Notes under the pieces: model-generated
Told to the model about the DNA's origin: nothing
The model's input: the letters and a program-made list of their open reading frames with translations, nothing else
The model's database searches: none
Translations under genes and position numbers: made by a program
In this document: in pieces, positions 5,684-35,636 of the stretch
Numbering within the stretch: the first letter of the stretch is position 1
How the letters are laid out: every line of letters begins with the position of its first letter
DNA from: a virus
Lineage: Duplodnaviria > Caudoviricetes
IMG/VR virus record: IMGVR_UViG_3300030106_004177
Location: 1 to 37,287 of that record
Length of the DNA: 37,287 bases
Direction: 5' to 3' (one strand)

Positions 5684-5714
5684 AGGGGCTGGCACACACC
5701 AGCCCCTATTCTTT
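5684..5714. terminator. Intrinsic terminator, probably bidirectional
   Basis: 9-bp stem AGGGGCTGG/CCAGCCCCT with a 6-nt loop, between convergent genes. Confidence 0.75.
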
Positions 5715-6117
5715 AGCTTGTTGGTTTTGCGTAATACCCATAAACCATTTTGTAAGAGCAGTCCCATGTGTCATGGATCTCTTGTTCAACAAGTGCCGAA
5801 AGGTGTCTCGCCATTCGCATAATGATTCTGCCGTTAGGCATATCGTAGTAGCGAGCTTTTCTACCCTCTAGCTTTGGGGCTGAGTGCCAAACCCAACCAT
5901 GTCTTTTTAGAAACTTTTCGTAGTTGGCTTTATGCGTACCGCCTCTAGCCGTTTTTTTGCCCTCAGTTTCTTTGTTAAGGGACGCTAGTTCGTCGTAGCA
6001 AGTTTTGTAGTCAAGCTCTAAAGCAATTGCTATAGCTCTGACAACGCAATCACCAGCATTTTTGCCTTTGAAATATTGTGAGCGTCCACCATCGTTGTAT
6101 TTAAAAGATTTTGTCAT
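5713..6117 (-). CDS. Hypothetical phage protein with a papain-like Cys-His-Asp arrangement, 134 aa
   Basis: GDCVVRAIA...HLSAL...HDTWD. Start set at ATG 6117, behind a TTTGGAGAA RBS. Confidence 0.7.
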   Translation of the reverse strand: MTKSFKYNDGGRSQYFKGKNAGDCVVRAIAIALELDYKTCYDELASLNKETEGKKTARGGTHKANYEKFLKRHGWVWHSAPKLEGRKARYYDMPNGRIIMRMARHLSALVEQEIHDTWDCSYKMVYGYYAKPTS

Positions 6118-6135
6118 ATCAATTTCTCCAAAAGG

Positions 6136-6151
6136 AGGGGCCGTAGCCCCT
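6136..6151 (-). other. cUACGg tetraloop hairpin between the two minus-strand genes
   Basis: The minus strand reads AGGGGC-TACG-GCCCCT followed by CCTTTT. Confidence 0.6.
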
Positions 6152-6155
6152 GTTG

Positions 6156-6476
6156 TTAAATATTTTTGTGAATAATTTTTGTGGCTAATAAAATATTCAA
6201 ACAATTTGTAAGTTGAGCTTTGGTTACTGCATCGTTGCATAAATTTTGAAATTGCTGTTTGGTGCATTTCATTTTTGTTTTGTCAGATGCTAAAATGCGT
6301 TGAGTTGCCTCTGCTTCTTTAACTACGTCTTCAAAAAAAGACACTGCCTCAATTTTTGCAGTACCGTCCGATGCAAAACTTATCATGTCTTGAGTAGACC
6401 AATTTGAGCCGCCACCGGAAAAAGTTTTTGTAATAATTTCGCCGTTTTCTTTGTGTTGTTTAACTTGCCAAAACAT
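6156..6476 (-). CDS. Hypothetical protein, 106 aa
   Basis: MFWQVKQHKENG...; TTTGGAGAA RBS and an upstream promoter. Confidence 0.7.
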   Translation of the reverse strand: MFWQVKQHKENGEIITKTFSGGGSNWSTQDMISFASDGTAKIEAVSFFEDVVKEAEATQRILASDKTKMKCTKQQFQNLCNDAVTKAQLTNCLNILLATKIIHKNI

Positions 6477-6537
6477 ATTAATTTCTCCAAATAAGTAACA
6501 ATAAATGTAATATAATACACATTTACATATGTTGCAA
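6477..6537 (-). promoter_or_regulatory. Sigma70-type promoter and leader (early-type cassette copy A)
   Basis: TTGCAA-17nt-TATATT, then GTTACTTA-TTTGGAGAA; aligns with 31405-31464 and 31847-31911. Confidence 0.75.
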
Positions 6538-6544
6538 GAGGTAA

Positions 6545-7909
6545 ATGCAAAAAAAATCAAATATTTCTGATCCCAAGTGGTTTATTGTGCCGTATAGTCG
6601 CGGCATAGTAATGCAGATAGGTGGTGATCAACCTTTGTATGGTCATTTTCTGTTAACCGACACTGTAGAGATTATTGCAGATGGTAAATTAGATGCGCTG
6701 GTAATCAATGGCGCTGAAATATTAGAAAGCAACACGTTTGAAGATTGGCGCAGGGTGATCAAGCCAGACGGCTACATAATCTTTGTCAATCAAGACGAAA
6801 CAGAAGCAAAAAACATATTAAGTGTTTGGTCAGATTGCGTGATAGCAAAACAGCGTGATCAGTTACTGGTTGTCACGCCAAACAAGAAAGAAAAGCAAAA
6901 GCCAAAGCCAGACAAGTCGTGTCTTGTGATAAGATATGGCGCATGGGGCGATCAGATTATATGCGCTGGCATATTCCCATTGCTCAAAAAGCAAGGATAC
7001 CATGTGACGTTAAATTGCCAAGCGCCACAGCACGTTATAAACGCAACGCACCCTGACATTGACGAATTGATGGTGCAAGACCGCAACCAAGTGCATAACG
7101 ATGACTTGGTGACGTACTGGCAAGCTATCGCAACCGAATATGATAAAGTTGTTAACCTCAGTTCAAGCATAGAAGGGCAGTTACTACTTAGCCACGAACA
7201 CCCAAAGTATTTTTGGTCACAATCTGCAAGGCACAAGTTGTTTAACCAGAATTATATGGAGATAACACATGATCTTGCTGACGTGCCGTATAATTTTCGT
7301 GGATGCGTTTTCCATGCAACGGCTGATGAAAAAGAACAGGCCAAAGAAATACGGCAAAGGTTTGATGCGCCGTTAGTCACATGGGCTGTTGCTGGTTCCA
7401 GCGTACATAAATGGTATCCGCACATGGCAGACGTGCTTGTAGGGCTGTTAGAACAGACAAATGCCTACGTCATGTTGATGGGCGATAAAGAAGCAATGGT
7501 TCTGCAAGAGTCTGTGCTTGAAGAGACAGAAAAACGATATGGCTCTGTAGAGCGCATAGCGGCTCAATGCGGCACGTTGCCAATGAGGGCATCAATGGCA
7601 CTGGCGCAAGTGTCAGACGTGGTTGTAGGGCCAGAAACAGGGCTTCTAAACGCTGTTTGCATGGAAAAAAACCATAAGGTTGTAATAGTCAGTCACAGTG
7701 GGCCAAAACAACTAACAAAACACTGGAAAAACACAAAAGAAATCTTGCCGCAAAATACGGCGTGTTTTCCATGTCACCGACTGCATTTTGATTTTGAACA
7801 CTGCAACCAAGATGACAACACAAAAGCGGCAAGATGCAGTGCCAGTATAGAGCCAGCAACAATTATTAAGGCTATAAAGAATGGATTACACAACGCTAGT
7901 CGCAAATAA
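6545..7909 (+). CDS. Glycosyltransferase family 9 (heptosyltransferase-like) with a degenerate methyltransferase-like N-terminal domain
   Basis: VIRYGAWGD, SSVHKWYP, VVGPETGLLNA and a C-terminal CFPC..C..C cluster. The N-terminal WRRVIKPDGYIIF resembles class I SAM-methyltransferases. Confidence 0.8.
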   Translation: MQKKSNISDPKWFIVPYSRGIVMQIGGDQPLYGHFLLTDTVEIIADGKLDALVINGAEILESNTFEDWRRVIKPDGYIIFVNQDETEAKNILSVWSDCVIAKQRDQLLVVTPNKKEKQKPKPDKSCLVIRYGAWGDQIICAGIFPLLKKQGYHVTLNCQAPQHVINATHPDIDELMVQDRNQVHNDDLVTYWQAIATEYDKVVNLSSSIEGQLLLSHEHPKYFWSQSARHKLFNQNYMEITHDLADVPYNFRGCVFHATADEKEQAKEIRQRFDAPLVTWAVAGSSVHKWYPHMADVLVGLLEQTNAYVMLMGDKEAMVLQESVLEETEKRYGSVERIAAQCGTLPMRASMALAQVSDVVVGPETGLLNAVCMEKNHKVVIVSHSGPKQLTKHWKNTKEILPQNTACFPCHRLHFDFEHCNQDDNTKAARCSASIEPATIIKAIKNGLHNASRK

Positions 7910-27134: not shown

Positions 27135-28003
27135 TAATCATTCTCCAAAAGTTTAACACGGCGTTGCCCCCCGCCTGTTCTGTACACTCGCACAGTATCG
27201 TTAAATATTTCCTTATCATCGTCTTTCAATTTGCCTTTTAGCTGTGAGTCTATCGCGCTAAAGGCTTTGTAACTGTCTTTGTAGCGTACCCACTGCGCGG
27301 CTAATTCACAAAACTCGTTGTCTTGGTGCATCTGTCGCGTTTGATGCGGCACAACTTTAGGGATTTTAATTTTAGGCTCCCAATCAGAATCTGGCGCTTC
27401 ATCGTTCATAACGTGCTGATAAAAGCCTCTATACAACGACAACAAACTTTGCTGTGTATCTGGCTCCGCTGGTATAGGTATAACATCCCATTTACTGTTT
27501 CCGAAAAACACTGACAATTCCGATTGCGTAACTGGCACTCCGAAAGCCGCTTGTGCAACCAGCATTTGCATTTGCATTTGTGCAGAGTAAGTATCTACTA
27601 ACTCTTCTTTGTTGCTCCACTTTCTTTCGTTTGTATGCTTGAAGTCTACTAATACAATGTTGCCAGCATCATCAATTCGCCATTGATCAGGGTGGGTTAA
27701 CAACCAAGGATAGTCAGGGTGTTGTGTTTCTAGTTCGAGTTTGTCACGCCACGTTTTACGCCAAGCGTCATTGTCAGCAAATTCGTACCCTGTCATCATT
27801 TCGTAATAACGTTTATTGAGACTTTCGGTATGACTGCCCATCAAGACGTTAAGTTTTGTTGACAAATCTTCTGGCTCTTTTCGGCCTGTGTATTCCAGCC
27901 AAGCATCCATCAAACCATTTTTCATATTGATCAATCGGTAGGCAAGAGAAGCACCTAGATAGATGTTGTTTTTTGACGCTACTCTATCGCTTGGTTGGCG
28001 CAT
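27134..28003 (-). CDS. YqaJ / lambda-exonuclease family recombination nuclease
   Basis: LGAS, W.E.TGR.EPEDLS, G...E, HP.YPW....PD, DFKHT and Y..Q.Q.QM. Confidence 0.88.
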   Translation of the reverse strand: MRQPSDRVASKNNIYLGASLAYRLINMKNGLMDAWLEYTGRKEPEDLSTKLNVLMGSHTESLNKRYYEMMTGYEFADNDAWRKTWRDKLELETQHPDYPWLLTHPDQWRIDDAGNIVLVDFKHTNERKWSNKEELVDTYSAQMQMQMLVAQAAFGVPVTQSELSVFFGNSKWDVIPIPAEPDTQQSLLSLYRGFYQHVMNDEAPDSDWEPKIKIPKVVPHQTRQMHQDNEFCELAAQWVRYKDSYKAFSAIDSQLKGKLKDDDKEIFNDTVRVYRTGGGQRRVKLLEND

Positions 28004-28172: not shown

Positions 28173-28269
28173 AATCTTCTCCAAAAATTTTTTACACCTT
28201 ACTTTACTTTTTGTAACGTGACAAGTTATAACGGTTGAAAGACTTAACAAAATGTAATACAGGTGATTT
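28173..28269. promoter_or_regulatory. Divergent promoter region between the recombination and replication operons
   Basis: Leftward TTGTCA-17nt-TAAGGT; rightward TTGAAA -35 candidate; dyads TTGT-N6-ACAA (28211-28224) and GTTATAAC. Confidence 0.6.
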
Positions 28270-28792: not shown

Positions 28793-29631
28793 TATTGCCG
28801 ACTATTCGTGATTTACGGTTGCCGCCTAGCGAAAAGTTGACGCTGTTAATTTTGGCAAGTCATCTGCCTAACGTGTTTCCATCCATCGACACACTTACTG
28901 AAGAAACAGGGTTAAGCCGCGCTACGGTACACAGGTGTTTACAGAGTTTGAAAAGACGAAATTACATTATTTGGGAGAAGACAGGGCGCAGTTCATCTTA
29001 CACAATTACCCTGCCTATGGATGATGGGAGAAGTCTCATGGTGAGACATCAGAAGTCTCATGGTGAGATAACAGATGTCTCACAGTTATACTCTAAGAAT
29101 CAAAATAAGAAACAAGATAAGAATATAAATAGTGTACAAGAAAAAATGCACGAAGAGTTTGAGCAATTTTACAGTAAGTATCCAAACAAGAAGGGTGACA
29201 AAAATTCTGCAAGACAACGGTTCCTAAAAACACGAAAAAAAGGCACAACCACAGAAAAAATTATGAGTGACTTGCAAGCGTATATTAGAACTAAACCTGA
29301 TTGGCAAAGTTTCGCTCATTGTGCAACATGGTTGAAGCAAATGATGGATGGCGATTATTGGCGCAATGACGTTTACGAAAATACCGAAAAGACGAGTGCT
29401 GTCAAAAGATTGCAAGCACAATGGGAAAAGTACGGCAATATCGGTAAACAGCCGTGGGCAACTGATCAGACACGACTGCAAGAAGAACGGCTTATCCAAC
29501 AAGCTTTTTACGAGGCAACCGATAGTGAAAAGACAATGCTCATACAGCAAGCGCCAGAGGGTGCAAATTTGCCAAGTAATGTCGTGAGGATGAAAGCAAA
29601 AACAAAAATGAGGGTGGTGCAATGCGACTAA
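28789..29631 (+). CDS. Replication initiator (lambda O-like: N-terminal HTH, iteron-encoding linker)
   Basis: FPSI.TL..ETGLSRATV.R.L..L and FE.FY..YP.K...K..A...F; contains internal iterons. Confidence 0.85.
   Translation: MILPTIRDLRLPPSEKLTLLILASHLPNVFPSIDTLTEETGLSRATVHRCLQSLKRRNYIIWEKTGRSSSYTITLPMDDGRSLMVRHQKSHGEITDVSQLYSKNQNKKQDKNINSVQEKMHEEFEQFYSKYPNKKGDKNSARQRFLKTRKKGTTTEKIMSDLQAYIRTKPDWQSFAHCATWLKQMMDGDYWRNDVYENTEKTSAVKRLQAQWEKYGNIGKQPWATDQTRLQEERLIQQAFYEATDSEKTMLIQQAPEGANLPSNVVRMKAKTKMRVVQCD
29029..29130 (+). repeat. Putative replication origin: 22-bp-period iterons plus AT-rich 12-bp repeats
   Basis: AGAAGTCTCATGGTGAGA at 29029 and 29051 with a partial third copy at 29073; TAAGAA at 29094, 29106 and 29118. 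Confidence 0.8.
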
Positions 29632-30155
29632 ACGTATTTCCAAAACACGGCGGCCAACCGTTACGGCTACAAATTTTTATACAAGGCCAAGCGAAGCCTG
29701 TTATTGACTACGCAATGGATGACAAAAAGACGGCGTGGTTGGTTAGCAAATTGTCAGAACAGCTTGCCGTAGAGCCTCACTTATCACTAAATCACGCTAT
29801 TAACGCACGTTACAAAGAGGCTGAAGTGTTTGCACAAATCAAAGAGTTTGTAGCGCAAGAGTTCGATTTAGACCCAATGTGTAATTTCAACTTACAAAAC
29901 AGAACGTCACACATTGCATTGCCACGTCAGGTAGTAATGTATTTAGCTGAAAAACATTGTCGCAGTATGGGTGTGACACAAATCGCCAGAATGTTAGAGC
30001 GTGATCACACGACTGTTTTGCATGGTGTAAAAGTAATAAAGGATAAAATTATGCAAGATGCTGACTTTGCAGAGCGTTTGCAAGTCATCGAAGAAAATCT
30101 AAATTCATGGATTTTACGCCGACAACATATATATCTGGAAAGGTACGATGAATAG
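29622..30155 (+). CDS. Protein with a DnaA C-terminal (domain IV) HTH
   Basis: R...IA.PRQV.MYL.......IA..L.RDHTTVLHG..I signature; no AAA+ domain. Confidence 0.88.
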   Translation: MRLNVFPKHGGQPLRLQIFIQGQAKPVIDYAMDDKKTAWLVSKLSEQLAVEPHLSLNHAINARYKEAEVFAQIKEFVAQEFDLDPMCNFNLQNRTSHIALPRQVVMYLAEKHCRSMGVTQIARMLERDHTTVLHGVKVIKDKIMQDADFAERLQVIEENLNSWILRRQHIYLERYDE

Positions 30156-30672
30156 GGCTTTCGTAATTAGTAATTTCACACGCCACGAATTTGATCATTA
30201 CCCAACAGTCGATGGTAGATGTATTAAAAGTTTGCTTGCGGCTTACCCTGACATACCAATGCCAGCTTTAGACCCCTTTTGCAACGGAACGGAGCCAACC
30301 AGATTATTTCCAGCAGTCAACGGCACGTTACGAGATATGAAAGGACGTTTTCAAAGCGTCATTACAAACCCGCCATATAAAAAAAGTATTGTTGATGATT
30401 TAATGCAGACGGTTATTACCGCTGTTTCAGAAGGTGATATACAGGTTGCCGCCGCTTTGATGCGGATTAGCTGGGATTGCGCTAAAACTAGAGCCAGTTA
30501 TTGGCAGTGGCCTTTCGCTTGCAGTCTCCGTTTGCAATATCGGCCTTATTGGTCAGAAGAACCAGCAAAGGCAAGCCCTATCCATAACTACCAATGGCTT
30601 ATTTTTGACAGGAGAATACCACACGAAAAAGAACCAGTTGTAAGGTACCACAACGGAGTCACCAATGAGTAA
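30148..30672 (+). CDS. Putative amino (N6-adenine) DNA methyltransferase
   Basis: D.YPT, DPFC.G and ITNPPY motifs; 174 aa, compact phage type. Confidence 0.7.
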   Translation: MNRAFVISNFTRHEFDHYPTVDGRCIKSLLAAYPDIPMPALDPFCNGTEPTRLFPAVNGTLRDMKGRFQSVITNPPYKKSIVDDLMQTVITAVSEGDIQVAAALMRISWDCAKTRASYWQWPFACSLRLQYRPYWSEEPAKASPIHNYQWLIFDRRIPHEKEPVVRYHNGVTNE

Positions 30673-31162
30673 AAAGAAAGAAGCATTAGAGCCGCCAGAG
30701 TTACGAGAAACGCCGGAGAGAAGCCAACATAGTCCAGTTGATGATGTAGCGTTTAAACCTAAAGGCGGTAAGGCTGTGCAGACTGTTCGCCGTGTGAGAT
30801 ATGAACACCCATTAGATGTAATGTTGCATCGAAGCTTGCTGACTGACAAACAATACGAAGCTGGCAACCTTTTTCGGCAACACTATTACAGGTCTGTAAA
30901 TCAAAACAGGGTGACAGCGAGATATGGCGCTAGTGCTGGTGTAGGCGGCGGGGTAGATGATGAAGTCTATTCGAGGGAGCAAGTGCGTGACGTGTTGGGG
31001 CGTCTGACTTTGCGGCAAGCATCTGTGCTAATCGGCGTGTGTGGTCATGGTGAGTTTGCAACCACGTGGGCGCATAAACTCAATTGGAAGCCGTCGAAAG
31101 AAACGCCAGTATCATTGTTGCGTCAGGCTTTAGATGAGGCGGCGAGCCTATGGAAGCTTTAA
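30665..31162 (+). CDS. DUF6456-like late transcription regulator (Q/GafZ-like)
   Basis: PLD.M..R..L...QY.AG..F...Y...VC...LR.ALD, at the end of the replication operon where lambdoid Q sits. Confidence 0.65.
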   Translation: MSKKKEALEPPELRETPERSQHSPVDDVAFKPKGGKAVQTVRRVRYEHPLDVMLHRSLLTDKQYEAGNLFRQHYYRSVNQNRVTARYGASAGVGGGVDDEVYSREQVRDVLGRLTLRQASVLIGVCGHGEFATTWAHKLNWKPSKETPVSLLRQALDEAASLWKL

Positions 31163-31336
31163 CCATTCGTCGCGCTTATCTGCACTCATTAATTCTAATG
31201 CGTGAATTAAAGCTGTATATCGTTTGTTTTCAGTTTTCATACCATTTTGTAAAGCACGTAACGACACACCTATTTTTGCACTGAAATCTTTTTGCGGAAT
31301 CTGCATATCCCGCAACCTCTTACCATATTGGTGCAT
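31148..31336 (-). CDS. Small XRE-like HTH protein
   Basis: L..M.I.QKDFS.KIGVSLRALQ; GGAG RBS before ATG 31336 (alternative start 31348). Confidence 0.65.
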   Translation of the reverse strand: MHQYGKRLRDMQIPQKDFSAKIGVSLRALQNGMKTENKRYTALIHALELMSADKRDEWLKLP

Positions 31337-31404
31337 TTTACTCTCCATTGTTTTTTTCTTTATAAATTAAAATAAAAAAAAGTGCAATAAGCTACAGAAA
31401 AAAC

Positions 31405-31464
31405 TTGTGGCATATATAGAAGTGTATTATATTTCTTAAATCGTTACTTACTTTGGAGAAAATA
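31405..31464 (+). promoter_or_regulatory. Sigma70-type promoter and leader (cassette copy B)
   Basis: TTGTGG-17nt-TATATT...GTTACTTAC-TTTGGAGAA. Confidence 0.7.
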
Positions 31465-31788
31465 ATGGAAAATATATTTGATCTTTTCACAGCCGCTGAT
31501 GAGTTAGTGGCTATCGAGTCAGATTTAAAAAAATTGGTTCAACGTAAGCGCGAAATACACGCTGAATTTAAAGCACGTGGTAAGGATGTAAACATCATTG
31601 GTAACAAGGCTACGATTGAGGTTCGCACTCACAAGCGCACAATGGTTGACAACAAAGAAATCCATAAACACGTGTCACGGCAACTATTAAGAGCGCACAC
31701 GACGAAAAAAGACGTCACAAGTGTTAACATCAAGCCTGTTGCCGCTTCTGTAGATAGGTCGTTATTGTTTGCCGCAAAAAGCGCATAA
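31465..31788 (+). CDS. Hypothetical early protein, 107 aa, N-terminal coiled coil
   Basis: Has its own promoter, RBS and terminator. Confidence 0.75.
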   Translation: MENIFDLFTAADELVAIESDLKKLVQRKREIHAEFKARGKDVNIIGNKATIEVRTHKRTMVDNKEIHKHVSRQLLRAHTTKKDVTSVNIKPVAASVDRSLLFAAKSA

Positions 31789-31798
31789 TAATTTACAA

Positions 31799-31824
31799 GG
31801 ATGCCCGAAAGGGCATCCACTTTT
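31799..31824 (+). terminator. Intrinsic terminator with GAAA tetraloop
   Basis: GGATGCCC-GAAA-GGGCATCC followed by ACTTTT. Confidence 0.8.
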
Positions 31825-31846
31825 CAAAATGGCTAAAAAACAGCAG

Positions 31847-31911
31847 TTGACATTTAGTAAAAAGTGTAGTATACTTCTTAGATTGTTAATAACTTTTGGA
31901 GAAGTTGTAAA
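31847..31911 (+). promoter_or_regulatory. Strong sigma70 promoter and leader (cassette copy C)
   Basis: TTGACA-17nt-TATACT...GTTAATAACT-TTTGGAGAAG. Confidence 0.85.
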
Positions 31912-32136
31912 ATGAAATTCAAAATGCCAAAACACGCTTATGGCAAGAAGCCACCAAAAACGCTAAACGGCGCAACCTTTATGTGGGTACACTTACAAGA
32001 CGAACTGCCACGCATCGGTTGTGGCAATCGCACTGTATGGGCCAAAAGTGGAACGAAGTGGACACACGTTTGCGACACAATGGGCAACAGAGCCAAGTTG
32101 CTTAATGCACAATTCGACAAAATTGCAAAAAGGTAG
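31912..32136 (+). CDS. Hypothetical early protein
   Basis: 74 aa, behind a promoter and RBS. Confidence 0.75.
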   Translation: MKFKMPKHAYGKKPPKTLNGATFMWVHLQDELPRIGCGNRTVWAKSGTKWTHVCDTMGNRAKLLNAQFDKIAKR

Positions 32137-32147
32137 GGAGAATAATA

Positions 32148-32471
32148 ATGGCTAACATACAGCAAGCGCCCTACACATTGGATGTAGGTAAAGACAGCCA
32201 AGAGGCTATTGACAAACAGCTAGGTAGCCTTATCGGTGAGACAGTTTGTGTTTCATGGACAAAGGTTATCCACGCGAACAAAAAATTTGCACTTGGTTCT
32301 AGGAAGCATTTTGAGCCTCAGATTTCTGTGCAAGGAACACTTGAGGGAAACGAAGAGACAGGGAGGTATCGCGTTCTATTAAACGATAGCACCTACTCGT
32401 ATTTCTATAACGACAGTGTGTGGTCGATGGGGCAAGCCGTCGGTAAACGCGCAATCGTATTTATATTATAA
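32148..32471 (+). CDS. Hypothetical early protein
   Basis: 107 aa; GGGAGA RBS. Confidence 0.75.
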   Translation: MANIQQAPYTLDVGKDSQEAIDKQLGSLIGETVCVSWTKVIHANKKFALGSRKHFEPQISVQGTLEGNEETGRYRVLLNDSTYSYFYNDSVWSMGQAVGKRAIVFIL

Positions 32472-32485
32472 AGGGAGTCAAAAAA

Positions 32486-32587
32486 ATGTGGCGTTTAGTA
32501 AGTGAAATTATTGGGGGGCTGATCGTAATGATCGGCCTACCAGCTTTAATGTTTTTTTACGGTGTTGCTTTCGGGTTAGTACAATGA
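32486..32587 (+). CDS. 33-aa single-TM peptide (not in ORF track)
   Basis: MWRLVSEIIGGLIVMIGLPALMFFYGVAFGLVQ; GGGAG RBS and ATGA overlap with the next ORF. Confidence 0.65.
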   Translation: MWRLVSEIIGGLIVMIGLPALMFFYGVAFGLVQ

Positions 32588-32808
32588 TTGCCCCGACATT
32601 GCGGCAGACTTGCCGATACAATGCAAGGCGCAAGGCATTAGAAGAGGCGCTGGCGTTGTTGCAACAGCTTAGTGATCATCTTGTGGAAGCAGATAAAGAT
32701 TTCGGCAACGTGACTAATGCGTTTGCCTTTGCGCATGAAGACTTAGGCAACAGCCGACAAGGGCTAGAGGAAGAGTTAGAAGATTTAGATTATGAGGACG
32801 AGACATGA
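32584..32808 (+). CDS. Hypothetical acidic helical protein
   Basis: 74 aa, translationally coupled on both sides. Confidence 0.65.
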   Translation: MIAPTLRQTCRYNARRKALEEALALLQQLSDHLVEADKDFGNVTNAFAFAHEDLGNSRQGLEEELEDLDYEDET

Positions 32809-33116
32809 AAATGTATAAAGCAATTCTCAACGATGAACGTTGGAATAAAATTTACCAGCAAGATCGTGACGTGGACGCTGTTTGGTTATACAAAAATTTA
32901 AAATCAACAGATACTGAATGGTGCGAAACTATCAAGGGTGCGAGGAACGAAGCGTTAGATCTTGGGATGCCAGCCAATTCGGTTATTTTAGGTGTTAATT
33001 TCAAGGATGCGCGAAAAGCGTTAAAAGATTTTATGAACGGCAAGCCTCATGTGAATGGGCGAGTAGAATTTGTAAGATATATAGACCGCAATATAACCGC
33101 TATTCTACAGGGATAG
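32805..33116 (+). CDS. Hypothetical protein
   Basis: 103 aa; GAGGA RBS. Confidence 0.7.
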   Translation: MKMYKAILNDERWNKIYQQDRDVDAVWLYKNLKSTDTEWCETIKGARNEALDLGMPANSVILGVNFKDARKALKDFMNGKPHVNGRVEFVRYIDRNITAILQG

Positions 33117-33117
33117 A

Positions 33118-33522
33118 ATGATGAAAAAGAAATATTCTGTTAGCGTTAATGTAAACTTTTCAGATCACATCGAAGCAGACAATGAAGATCAAGCATGGAA
33201 AGCTTTGAAAAAAACCTCTGGGATTAATAGTTTTCTTTTTGCAATTTTCCGCTGTCAAAACCGCTTTAGTAAACGCTTTGCGAGTCGGCGCCTACTTACC
33301 GTGAAATTTACGGAATCTTTAGAAAAGATAAAATCAAAACATAAGAAGGGGGGCTATAAACAATTGGCTTACTTACCTAACAAACGGCACCCTGTTTCTT
33401 CGTTTAGTGTGCCAAATTTCCCACTTTATTTAAATCTACAAAGGACAGTGGGACAACGCTTAGTACGCACACGAAAAATGAACGTTCGTTACGCACAACA
33501 TCTAGTGCAGAAAGTGGGTTGA
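33118..33522 (+). CDS. Hypothetical ORF of chimeric appearance
   Basis: The first ~32 aa look like a typical small phage protein (Y.V.V......IEA.NE..A). The remainder includes an inverted decayed gene fragment. Confidence 0.4.
   Translation: MMKKKYSVSVNVNFSDHIEADNEDQAWKALKKTSGINSFLFAIFRCQNRFSKRFASRRLLTVKFTESLEKIKSKHKKGGYKQLAYLPNKRHPVSSFSVPNFPLYLNLQRTVGQRLVRTRKMNVRYAQHLVQKVG
33223..33312 (-). pseudogene. Inverted decayed copy of part of the 63-aa basic protein gene (23922-24011)
   Basis: 68/90 nt identical without gaps. Translates RKFHGK*APTRKAFTKAVLTAENCKKKTIN versus RKPNSKGAPTDKAFAKAALTAKDRKKKTTK. Confidence 0.8.
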
Positions 33523-33547
33523 CGTACTAAAAATTCGATATTAGAGT
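33519..33547 (+). promoter_or_regulatory. Sigma70-type promoter upstream of the late genes (pR'-like)
   Basis: TTGACG-17nt-TAGAGT, with a second -10-like TAGATT at 33560-33565 just after the predicted start. Confidence 0.75.
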
Positions 33548-33554
33548 TATTTCC

Positions 33555-33761
33555 ACTGTTAGATTTCTGCCTTGTGCATTTATACAATGTGATCTCCTGT
33601 TTTAATATCACCGACAGTAACAATCCAATAGTAACTTCTCCAAAGTGAACGTGTATAAATCACAGGCAGAGTCTAGCAGACCATAGCGGTTTTGACATTG
33701 CCGCTTCACTCCTTTGTTAAACGGCTGGTAGCATCCTCCAACACTGCCAGCCGTTTTTTTT
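33555..33761 (+). ncRNA. Structured ~205-nt leader/small RNA with four anti-SD motifs
   Basis: Bounded by a promoter and terminator; ~28-bp bulged stem 33556-33586/33652-33679; CU-rich motifs at 33594, 33636, 33709 and 33735 in predicted unpaired regions. Confidence 0.7.
33719..33761 (+). terminator. Intrinsic terminator (tR'-like)
   Basis: AAACGGCTGGTAG/CTGCCAGCCGTTT stem, 12-nt loop and T8 tract. Confidence 0.85.
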
Positions 33762-33771
33762 GGAAGCAATT

Positions 33772-33963
33772 ATGAAAATACAAGATTATTTCAACAATCC
33801 AGAGATAGGAACAGGCAACGTTTCTGTTTGGGAACACGTGGACGGTTCATGGGTTGTGATCGAAGTTACAAGATTTGCCGCTAGTGACAAAGAAATGGCA
33901 AGACAATATGCGTCTATGTTAGCAGGGGAAGAGTGCGTCCCAGTTGATGCAACAATGCACTGA
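33772..33963 (+). CDS. Hypothetical protein, 63 aa, first late-region ORF
   Basis: ATG 33772 after GGAAG, immediately downstream of the terminator. Confidence 0.55.
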   Translation: MKIQDYFNNPEIGTGNVSVWEHVDGSWVVIEVTRFAASDKEMARQYASMLAGEECVPVDATMH

Positions 33964-34003
33964 TAACTTGAAAAAAAACCAATTATAAACCAAGAGGAAT
34001 ATT

Positions 34004-34387
34004 ATGGCACATGGCGGCCCAAGGCCGAATTCTGGGCGAAAAAAAGGTAGTAAAAACGTCAAATCAATTGAGATAGCTAACCGTTGTGCAGAAGAGGGAA
34101 TAACGCCTTTAGAATATATGCTCAACATTATGCGTGATCCAACGCAAGAATTTGACACACGTATGGATGCCGCGAAGTCAGCCGCGCCATACATTCACCC
34201 TAAACTTGCATCAGTCGAACAGAAAGTAGAAGCAGAGGTAAACGGTTCAATATATGAATGGCTCACAAGATCAGTGGCAGAGGCTGGGCAGAGCGTGGTC
34301 GCAGAACCCAACGATGTTCGTGGAACAGACGTTGAAGGTGACGCCGGAGAAATGGCAAGCGGAAGCACTGACAGCACTATGCACTGA
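34004..34387 (+). CDS. terS: Terminase small subunit
   Basis: GG.RPNSGRKKGSKN, TPLEYML..M and R.DAAK.AAPYIHPKL; overlaps terL. Confidence 0.8.
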   Translation: MAHGGPRPNSGRKKGSKNVKSIEIANRCAEEGITPLEYMLNIMRDPTQEFDTRMDAAKSAAPYIHPKLASVEQKVEAEVNGSIYEWLTRSVAEAGQSVVAEPNDVRGTDVEGDAGEMASGSTDSTMH

Positions 34388-35636
34388 AGACCGCATAGCT
34401 GTCAGGTCAGGTCACGGTGTAGGCAAGTCAGCATTTAGCGCATGGTCAATACTTTGGTGGATGTATACCAAATCACCGTCTAAGATTGCAGTGACAGCGC
34501 CGACAAGTCACCAATTGCAAGACATACTTTGGTCAGAGCTAGCAACGTGGCACAGGAAAATGCCGAAAGCGTTGCAAGATTTATTTGAATTGACTGCAAC
34601 ACGATTTTATTTGAAATCACAACCTGACACAGCATTTGCAGTGCCAAGGGTTAGCCGTCCAGAGAAGCCCGAAGCTTTCCAAGGTTTTCACAGCGATAAT
34701 ATGTTGTTTATCGTAGACGAGGCTTCTGGGGTAGACGAGGTAATTTTTGAGGTAGGTCAGGGCGCTATGTCAACCAAGGGCGCTAAGACGTTGATGGTTG
34801 GCAACCCTACAAGGACAAACGGTTATTTCTTTGACGCATTTAATCAGCAACGAAGCAACTGGTGGACAAAGCGTGTTAGTTGTGCAGAAAGCACAAGGGT
34901 CGATCCCAGCTTTATAAAAGAAATGGCATCTAAGTATGGTGCTGACAGCGCAATATACGCCGTCAGGGTGCTTGGAGACTTCCCAGAGCAATCAGATGAC
35001 GCAATCATCTCTTTGTCGCTCTGTGAGGCCGCTATACGTCGAGATGTAGAGCCGCTAATGGGTCAGCCCACATGGGGCTTGGACGTGGCAAGGTTTGGTG
35101 ATGATCAAACGGCTTTAGCCAAACGTCAGCGCAATGTGATGTTAGAGCCAGTAAAAAGCTGGCGTAACAAGTCAGTGACACAGGTTGCTGGCATAGTAAT
35201 AGACGAATACTTGCAAACGCCGTCATCAGAGCGCCCAGCTAAGATACTGATTGACTCGATAGGCGTAGGCAGTGGCGTGGTTGACATACTGCAAGATGAA
35301 GACTTGCCAGCTATTGGAATAAACGTAGCAGAAAGCCCAAGTGTCAGGGCTAGATATATGCGGCTACGTGATGAATTGTGGTTCAAAGGCCGCGAATGGT
35401 TAGAGGCCAGAGACTGCAAGATGGTCGATGATCCAGATTTAATAGGTGAGTTGACTGCCCCACGTTATGCAATGACAGCAAGCGGCAAAATACAGGTAGA
35501 GCCAAAAGATAAAACAAAGCAACGTTTGGGTGGCTCACCAGACCTAGCAGACGCATTTTTACTTACGTTTGCATCGCCTGATCATCGTGTAAGCGAAGAT
35601 CATTACTACGAAACCGACTATTACGAGGATAGTTAA
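34254..35636 (+). CDS. terL: Terminase large subunit
   Basis: Walker A RSGHGVGKS, Walker B FIVDEA, GNPT, and nuclease motifs GLDVARFGDD, IDSIGVG and SPDLADA. Confidence 0.95.
   Translation: MNGSQDQWQRLGRAWSQNPTMFVEQTLKVTPEKWQAEALTALCTEDRIAVRSGHGVGKSAFSAWSILWWMYTKSPSKIAVTAPTSHQLQDILWSELATWHRKMPKALQDLFELTATRFYLKSQPDTAFAVPRVSRPEKPEAFQGFHSDNMLFIVDEASGVDEVIFEVGQGAMSTKGAKTLMVGNPTRTNGYFFDAFNQQRSNWWTKRVSCAESTRVDPSFIKEMASKYGADSAIYAVRVLGDFPEQSDDAIISLSLCEAAIRRDVEPLMGQPTWGLDVARFGDDQTALAKRQRNVMLEPVKSWRNKSVTQVAGIVIDEYLQTPSSERPAKILIDSIGVGSGVVDILQDEDLPAIGINVAESPSVRARYMRLRDELWFKGREWLEARDCKMVDDPDLIGELTAPRYAMTASGKIQVEPKDKTKQRLGGSPDLADAFLLTFASPDHRVSEDHYYETDYYEDS

Follow-up and report, generated by a model that had tools for sequence, protein, structure and literature searches.

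The DNA analysed here (37,287 nt in total, referred to throughout as the window) comes from a marine phage. It is apparently a complete genome in circularly permuted form, in whose end overlap 343 of 364 bases agree. Gene calls and family searches identified portal, capsid, tail and lysis genes on its plus strand, along with terminase, cro, a replication initiator and a recombination operon that runs leftward; the family searches of the genome found no integrase and no CI gene opposite cro. The host is probably alphaproteobacterial, since the SSB, the DUF6456 protein and a weak GapR match point to this class. A Halobacteriovorax bin containing a contig similar to the relative G003 was considered as a lead to the host and rejected, the contig being probably mis-binned (SSB matches are mostly alphaproteobacterial); outside the phage contig, this bin carries the sequence tag described below before an ATG 22 times in ~4.9 Mb.

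Ahead of the late genes, on the same strand, lie a sigma-70-type promoter, a region predicted to be transcribed as a leader RNA and an intrinsic terminator, followed by a small ORF (Table 1). A preliminary description of this DNA had drawn a promoter-to-terminator unit with a long bulged stem at this place, and all of its coordinates check: the basal stem, the hairpin and the terminator (a stem at 33719–33756 plus a T run) are present in the fold, the four anti-Shine-Dalgarno (anti-SD) motifs lie at 33594, 33636, 33709 and 33735, and the segment at 33633–33646 reads AACTTCTCCAAAGT as claimed. The plus strand of the unit folds at −66.4 kcal/mol (z −6.68), which none of 200 shuffles equalled, and the minus strand has a z of −3.37. 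A simple terminator scan had found no terminator because its loop limit is 8 and the loop here is 12 nt. Rfam 15 gave no match in the window at the gathering threshold, and the best score in 33300–34100 was 21.6 bits against 50 required, covering the terminator only; the unit therefore belongs to no curated family (ar14/cuckoo, AbcR and C4 included, if curated). Assembled contigs of one RNA run (X1, share 0.07) lie at 33971–34142 and 35445–35632 and none falls on the unit, though contigs cannot show absence. Upstream, the ORF at 33118–33522 was considered as a Q-like gene and dropped, having no family match.

Table 1. Features of the window that bear on the leader RNA and its candidate targets; rank is the place among 59 start sites in the interaction ranking.
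Feature	Position	Strand	Details
Conserved box upstream of the −35, likely protein-binding site (predicted)	33495..33505	.	kept in 7/7 copies printed
Sigma-70-type promoter	33519..33547	+	−35 TTGACG at 33519, −10 TAGAGT at 33542; 9/12
Predicted 207-nt leader RNA, promoter to terminator	33555..33761	+	fold z −6.68; found by model built without clade A
Basal stem P1, closing the loop region	33556–33586 with about 33652–33679	+	from the fold
Seed hairpin, invariant seed TTCTCCAAA at 33636–33644	33634..33646	+	shared by 10/10 copies
Second module: hairpin (33685–33705) with GACAT loop, then single-stranded CTCCT	33685..33713	+	
Intrinsic terminator	33719..33761	+	no other strong terminator-like site on + from 31400 to 33780
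Conserved 63-aa ORF, first gene past the terminator	33772..33963	+	no Pfam/PHROG match
Tagged RBS of gene 31912	31895..31906	+	12-nt complement; behind promoter 31847–31875; rank 2/59
Tagged RBS of gene 31465 (weakly GapR-like)	31450..31460	+	11-nt complement; rank 1/59
Tagged RBS of gene 28172, first in leftward operon	28176..28185	−	10-nt complement; rank 9/59
Tagged RBS of gene 27134	27141..27149	−	rank 3/59
Tagged RBS of gene 6476, first in island behind capsid gene	6483..6491	−	promoter-like site at 6537; rank 5/59
Tagged RBS of gene 6117, behind cassette hairpin	6124..6132	−	rank 12/59
DUF6456 protein, candidate GafZ-like antiterminator of late operon	30665..31162	+	PF20057 E 2.8e-4, sub-threshold; above cut-off in G006
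Protein with DnaA C-terminal HTH, candidate GafY-like partner	29622..30155	+	PF08299 E 1.6e-15

Conservation of the leader unit

Relatives were gathered through terminase, promoter-pattern and small-ORF searches. One pattern scan returned nine stretches, three of them unrelated (L012, L017, L018); another returned 24, of which 14 were unrelated and left out and 10 were of this phage group, all containing the seed; a further scan returned five, one unrelated (L081). Ten copies of the unit were compared, from clade A (the window, L002, L009, L045 and L006), lineage D (L007 and L008) and clade B (L004, L005 and L053). None of 50,697 named phages matched the unit in blastn.

The copies are 136–223 nt long and 40–98% identical in pairs (minimum 0.40). 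All ten have the basal stem, the terminator and, behind it, the same 63-aa ORF, which has few true relatives, and the plus strand folds better than the minus strand in 9/10. The −35 hexamer is the same TTGACG in 9/9 copies examined, in all of which the first paired base at the 5′ end falls 34–36 nt after the −35 start. Cargo genes separate the unit from terS in L006–L008, so the unit travels with its promoter; the cargo between the 63-aa ORF and terS in these three is ParB-like and methyltransferase-like by translation alone. A model built from clade A only found four of the five B/D copies (E 1.8e-6 to 0.03; L005 was missed), and one built from clade B and lineage D only found L045 and, weakly, the window, starting from exactly 33555 (E 0.19). 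In the B/D alignment, 7 of 33 basal-stem pairs have changed on both sides, as good a result as in 1 of 500 shuffles; with five sequences from two lineages and a structure derived from the same sequences, these paired changes are supportive of a conserved structure, short of proof. Conservation of a structured unit in relatives, which the preliminary description had proposed as a check, is supported.

Upstream of the promoter, the sequence beyond the conserved box differs among the seven copies. This box, about 10 nt from the −35, resembles an NrdR box, and homologs of it occur in L004, L006, L007, L008 and L045 as well as in the unrelated L021, L032, L041 and L042. NrdR boxes have a tandem spacing (PMC2892513), and we saw no clear second box beside this one; the box could instead bind the phage DnaA-HTH protein. 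An inverted repeat at ~33420–33456, about 100 nt upstream of the promoter, is kept in some clade A and B copies (L002, L004, L005) and absent from L006–L008 and L045.

The seed and the ribosome-binding-site tag

Words of at least 6 bases that every one of the ten copies contains fall exclusively inside TTCTCCAAA. In every copy this seed forms a small hairpin with CUCC open, at an opening cost of 0.01–0.28 kcal/mol, although its place in the loop region differs: clade B and lineage D have it on the 5′ side, clade A on the 3′ side. The 9-mer of the window makes up the loop plus the arms of a weak 4-bp hairpin, which would cost about 2 kcal/mol to open as a whole and 0.3 at the CUCC core. The seed is predicted to be accessible, as had been proposed, with CUCC open in the fold. 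Variant contigs of four other runs, from strains that are few and close, carry 13 substitutions, none of them in the seed. A function had also been suggested for the other three CU motifs, which we do not uphold as they are not invariant among the ten copies; the motif at 33594 is found in three, the terminator-loop CCTCC in one, and the motif at 33709 is altered in L045. A second candidate seed, GTAACAAT (the complement of ATTGTTAC in some 5′ UTRs), was rejected because it is lost in L045.

The counterpart of the seed is TTTGGAGAA, hereafter the tag, which occurs seven times in the window against 0.45 expected, a count seen in 0/100 shuffles. Six copies stand 4–8 nt before ATGs at 6117, 6476, 27134, 28172, 31465 and 31912, precisely the six starts named before, and their perfect complements of 9, 9, 9, 10, 11 and 12 nt agree with the 9–12 nt then given. 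Four of these genes are on the strand opposite to the unit and therefore cannot be its cis targets. No upstream 9-mer is more frequent in the window or in G003 than the reverse complement of the seed, and shuffled RNAs matched as many starts in 7 (window), 22 (G003) and 12 (G001) of 3000 trials each.

The seventh copy of the tag is antisense, inside the unit, which raises the question of whether the minus strand is the functional one; the motifs would then belong to an antisense transcript, either as RBSs of micro-ORFs or as the decoy copy of a site bound by a protein. A promoter-like site at 34010–33982 on that strand and an SD plus ATG on the minus strand of the second module in 9/10 copies would fit this explanation. 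However, the peptides vary in length (8–26 aa) and in sequence, no ATG follows the TTTGGAGAA copy in the unit, the 34010 site is present in only 3/9 copies, all of clade A, and it is the plus strand that folds better and has the promoter and a T-tailed terminator. We regard a functional minus strand as highly improbable.

Tag placement separates gene classes in the window: it precedes none of 37 late starts and 6 of 22 other starts (Fisher p 0.0017), and among GGAG-type starts none of 5 late and 6 of 9 others (p 0.028), under a late/non-late split and a gene list made for the present analysis, partly from automatic gene calls. The absence of the tag from structural genes, previously noted for a few of them, thus extends to all late starts of the window. 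In G001, where the gene caller missed the fourth tagged ORF (32 aa), the late/non-late split alone gave p 0.076, and in clade B the seed is matched over 10 nt by one gene of the late region. The preliminary description had further taken the tag to mark early/recombination genes. Only 27134, beside the YqaJ exonuclease, is a likely recombination gene (it likely encodes a single-strand annealing protein, a function that is only a lead), and we abandoned this part. Judged from its placement, the tag follows leader position, not function, marking the first gene behind an early promoter or cassette hairpin. Across 11 records, some of them near-duplicates, all 44 tag occurrences are accounted for, 35 by ORF starts and 9 by the copy within the RNA itself; the 35 tagged proteins form 13 unrelated clusters, ArdC included, and homologs have the tag when first behind a promoter or cassette hairpin and lack it when internal. 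It is missing from the clade B homologs of 27134.

Several observations concern the tagged regions themselves. The minus-strand island at 5713–6545, behind the capsid region, has its own promoter; its genes differ in each relative, and the hairpin-plus-RBS leaders are kept. PADLOC matched none of eight proteins. A small HTH-like gene at 31148–31348 on the minus strand, conserved in all clades, is divergent from the tagged rightward operon, and its product is a candidate transcriptional repressor of that operon. A conserved 33-aa hydrophobic ORF at 32486–32587 (plus strand), absent from the ORF list, carries the tag in relatives when it is first in the operon.

Clade C (L073–L077, L087 and L088; DUF6456 identity 49%, G+C 62%) has a structured leader at the same place, from which seed and tag are jointly absent. 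The tag was found in none of three clade C records, one of them complete, and the syntenic leaders of L089 and clade C had no seed, no tag and no match to the unit models; no substitute seed/tag pair was found in clade C. The seed is therefore dispensable for this genome plan. The clade C leader itself (L076:11471–11766; also L073–L075, L077, L087 and L088) is 215–295 nt long and multi-hairpin, with duplicated terminator-like hairpins and a single-stranded CU-rich stretch. Early leaders of clade C share GGGAG(A/G)A, for which no pairing link to the leader RNA was found. In clade C and L089, small ORFs stand behind the leader in a position similar to that of the 63-aa ORF.

An origin of the seed is hinted at by the B/D stem model, which also matches the antisense strand of a cassette leader (L045:11372–11405, E 1.5), so that an inverted copy of such a leader is a plausible source. 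Taken further, this match and the seedless leader RNA of clade C could mean that an inverted cassette leader was captured once, that the seed has no pairing role and that the unit is an attenuator-like spacer for antitermination. Against this, the seed is the sole invariant word down to 40% identity, its loop stays open whatever the surrounding structure, and its flanks vary with those of the leaders (see below), which leaves a pairing-free relic scarcely credible.

Predicted pairing between the leader RNA and tagged genes

Interactions of the RNA with the 59 starts were ranked with our own script, which approximates IntaRNA using contiguous helices only and takes accessibility into account. 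The six tagged starts took ranks 1, 2, 3, 5, 9 and 12, with energies that are modest (−4.4 to −10.9 kcal/mol, contiguous helices only), and the late genes 22049 and 16615 took ranks 4 and 6 through the second motif. The perfect complement reaches 12, 17 and 17 bases in the three lineages. All seven clade B leaders continue with ATT and the clade B RNAs are extended to match, so that on these leaders they have a mean perfect complement of 14.7 nt, compared with 9.0–10.0 for clade A RNAs. The one tagged gene of L086, which overlaps L007 at 117/118 bases, is ArdC, and its leader is complementary to the RNAs of L007 and L008 over 15 and 17 nt, compared with 9–13 nt for the other five RNAs. A same-lineage RNA was the strongest partner for 15 of 18 leaders. 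For none of the window's six leaders did its own RNA come first among the seven, and a clade B RNA suited three island leaders of clade A better, clade A making up three of the seven columns. Within a scope of three lineages, one of which (D) contributes a single leader, the comparison supports the conclusion that the seed flanks change in step with the tagged leaders. Many tagged leaders fold weakly around UUGGAG, the first four bases of which fit the YUNR U-turn pattern, and such a turn speeds antisense pairing (PMC6562991).

These results, with the conservation of promoter, stem, seed and terminator and the restriction of the tag to non-late starts in the window, favour a trans-acting RNA. 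We think it probable that the unit is a pR′/tR′-type leader RNA, as predicted here, that represses tagged start sites in trans. Through its conserved UUCUCCAAA loop the RNA would bind the UUUGGAGAA tag that covers the RBSs of likely early and accessory genes, and so block their translation. On this model the promoter at 33519, read by host sigma-70, would fire from entry onward, also in lysogens of temperate relatives; transcription would end at 33761 until the DUF6456 protein antiterminates into terS, and the terminated, stable RNA would accumulate. Its open CUCC loop would first touch UUGGAG in the target, often presented in a weak AU-rich hairpin, after which the arms would zip to 9–17 bp across the SD and 30S entry would be blocked. 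Genes needed at entry (ArdC in lineage D) would in this way be restrained after a delay and the islands kept silent in the lysogen, and whatever gene is exchanged into the place behind a tagged leader would come under the same control.

The main rival is a cis-acting tail, in which the hairpin is the 3′ end of a rightward early message (from 31847 or 31405) and folds back on the RBS of its first gene, the other tagged leaders being alike by shared descent. No strong terminator lies on the plus strand between 31400 and the unit, so the unit's hairpins would also end the rightward early message, and both the longest complement in the window (12 nt, at 31912) and the sole one known in lineage D (ArdC) belong to first genes of this operon. 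The dedicated promoter, conserved at a fixed distance, speaks against such a tail. So do the pairings in G001, whose strongest partners (−12.6 and −12.0) are on other transcripts and whose upstream first gene pairs less strongly (−8.5), and the situation in G003, where the seed persists in the RNA although the tag is gone from the homolog of 31912. The minimum-free-energy fold of the 1.9-kb read-through message also leaves the seed unpaired with the 31912 RBS, which is weak evidence. Overall, we consider a mainly cis-acting role unlikely.

A different objection concerns the second module, whose loop reads GACA(T/A) in 9/10 copies and which, together with the CUCC that follows, reads as an anti-AUG plus anti-SD element. 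In six pairings it had no consistent phage target; the only matches were, in G003, to the gene that opens the leftward set and, in G001, to one close by. The RNA might then be a generic anti-SD RNA aimed mainly at host mRNAs, as AbcR1 and ar14 RNAs apply anti-SD loops to many host mRNAs (PMC4152367; PMC7143759), and the tag a strong RBS that spread with duplicated promoter cassettes; promoter and 5′ UTR sequences are indeed alike in three tagged leaders. With a host target there would be no reason why the flanks track the phage's own leaders in clade B and lineage D, over up to 17 nt, and we hold this account to be improbable. For trans repression of tagged phage genes, what remains of the preliminary interpretation is the structured, conserved unit, the accessible seed, the non-late tag and the covarying flanks; the CI-less switch, the recombination class and the additional motifs are not supported.

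Timing and comparison with known systems

The RNA had been cast as an early-to-late switch made from a late promoter in a phage without CI. That timing now seems less likely, as the promoter, with its −35 near consensus in 9/9 copies, looks sigma-70 constitutive, not late-only. In the Caulobacter gene transfer agent (GTA), a consensus −35 removed the need for activation (PMC11150451, PMC9638019), which, taken with the near-consensus −35 here, suggests that the RNA is made without late factors. Given TTGACG in all nine copies, we consider it more likely that the unit is made from entry onward and in lysogens, as is lambda 6S RNA. As for CI, the window indeed has none opposite cro. Nevertheless, an integrase is present in the relatives G001, G004 and G006 (and absent in G003), G001 has an HTH repressor-like gene opposite cro, and both G001 and G004 keep the RNA unit and the tag; since they do so despite these genes, the RNA, to go by gene content, does not stand in for CI. 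In clade C, L076 has a CI gene, and the stretch of L074 from cro to the leftward genes showed none.

In lambdoid phages, the transcript that starts at the late promoter and stops at the terminator long passed for a by-product. The layout of the unit is that of lambda pR′–tR′, with a sigma-70 promoter, an intrinsic terminator 130–260 nt on and late genes next on the same strand. The lambda 6S RNA (~194 nt) starts at the late promoter, ends at the terminator that Q overrides and is present in the lysogen and the lytic cycle; Hfq RIL-seq gave it several host targets and one in the early operon, and its role is stated as undetermined (bioRxiv 10.1101/2024.10.31.621285). Our likening is by layout, not sequence, and the accessible part of that source describes no shared RBS tag or covarying seed. 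StxS is a regulatory sRNA from a terminated late-promoter transcript that represses a phage gene at its RBS; in contrast to the unit, it is a processed 74-nt Hfq RNA, and the targets given in the available portion of the report are host rpoS and a cargo gene of the late region, in contrast to a tagged early set on several transcripts (PMC7547250). As precedents, StxS and lambda 6S RNA support a function for terminated leader RNAs.

The C4 antisense RNA of P1/P7 is structured, occludes RBSs of phage mRNAs with a loop, and supports lysogeny and immunity; RNase P releases it as a 77-nt RNA of three hairpins, with loops a′ and b′ (PMC5320573). For the unit, complementarity to phage RBSs and loop accessibility are shown in silico only, and its architecture is not that of C4: it has its own promoter and terminator, one invariant seed, a length of 136–223 nt and no Rfam match. 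With AbcR1 and ar14/cuckoo RNAs it shares an alphaproteobacterial setting, unpaired CU-rich anti-SD motifs, modular hairpins and variable stems, whereas those are chromosomal RNAs that, in the portions of the reports consulted, act on host transport mRNAs (PMC4152367; PMC7143759). Membership of these families, which the preliminary description had cited as known examples, is not supported: besides the lack of an Rfam match, the anti-SD motif is not in all hairpin loops as it is in ar14/cuckoo RNAs, the second loop holding GACAT. The cuckoo motif has nine bases and is C-rich, and it is found in none of the ten copies. Taken together, these comparisons make it likely that the unit acts like StxS and C4, sits like lambda 6S RNA and falls outside every curated family.

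In phage T4, RegB and RegA recognise early phage mRNAs at the translation-initiation region (GGAG) and shut them down (PMC3014915); they are proteins, whereas the unit would use RNA. A literature search over the main texts of mostly open-access papers turned up no account of a phage RNA that recognises an RBS tag common to several genes. If true, our reading would offer a case, testable by compensatory mutations, of an RNA doing the job of RegA and RegB, would show how phages can keep exchangeable entry genes, ArdC for example, in check with no need of a further regulator and would supply a compact seed/tag pair for synthetic control. Tentatively, the idea can be carried a step further: it is possible that one late-leader RNA reads the tag in mobile leader cassettes as an open-ended regulon, so that swapped-in anti-defence and accessory genes would be timed and silenced in lytic and temperate relatives and a resident phage would silence the entry genes of related superinfecting phages.

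Release of the late operon may fall to the DUF6456 protein, for which a fold search gave no match at E 0.001 and weak sigma-4 and Q21 rows only. GafZ is an antiterminator in Caulobacter GTA control (PMC11150451; PMC9638019). As with Caulobacter GafYZ, a DnaA-like HTH gene and a DUF6456 gene lie upstream of a packaging operon that has a long leader and a terminator; the GTA −35, by contrast, is degenerate and needs activation, whereas that of the window is near consensus, and no regulatory RNA from the GTA leader is described in the available parts of these sources (PMC11150451; PMC9638019). A GafY/GafZ-like pair in a phage (DnaA HTH plus DUF6456) bears on the phage origin of GTA regulators. 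In the Komagataeibacter phage phiKX1, a DUF6456 homolog (L085:7824–8396) lies directly before terS, in Q's place.
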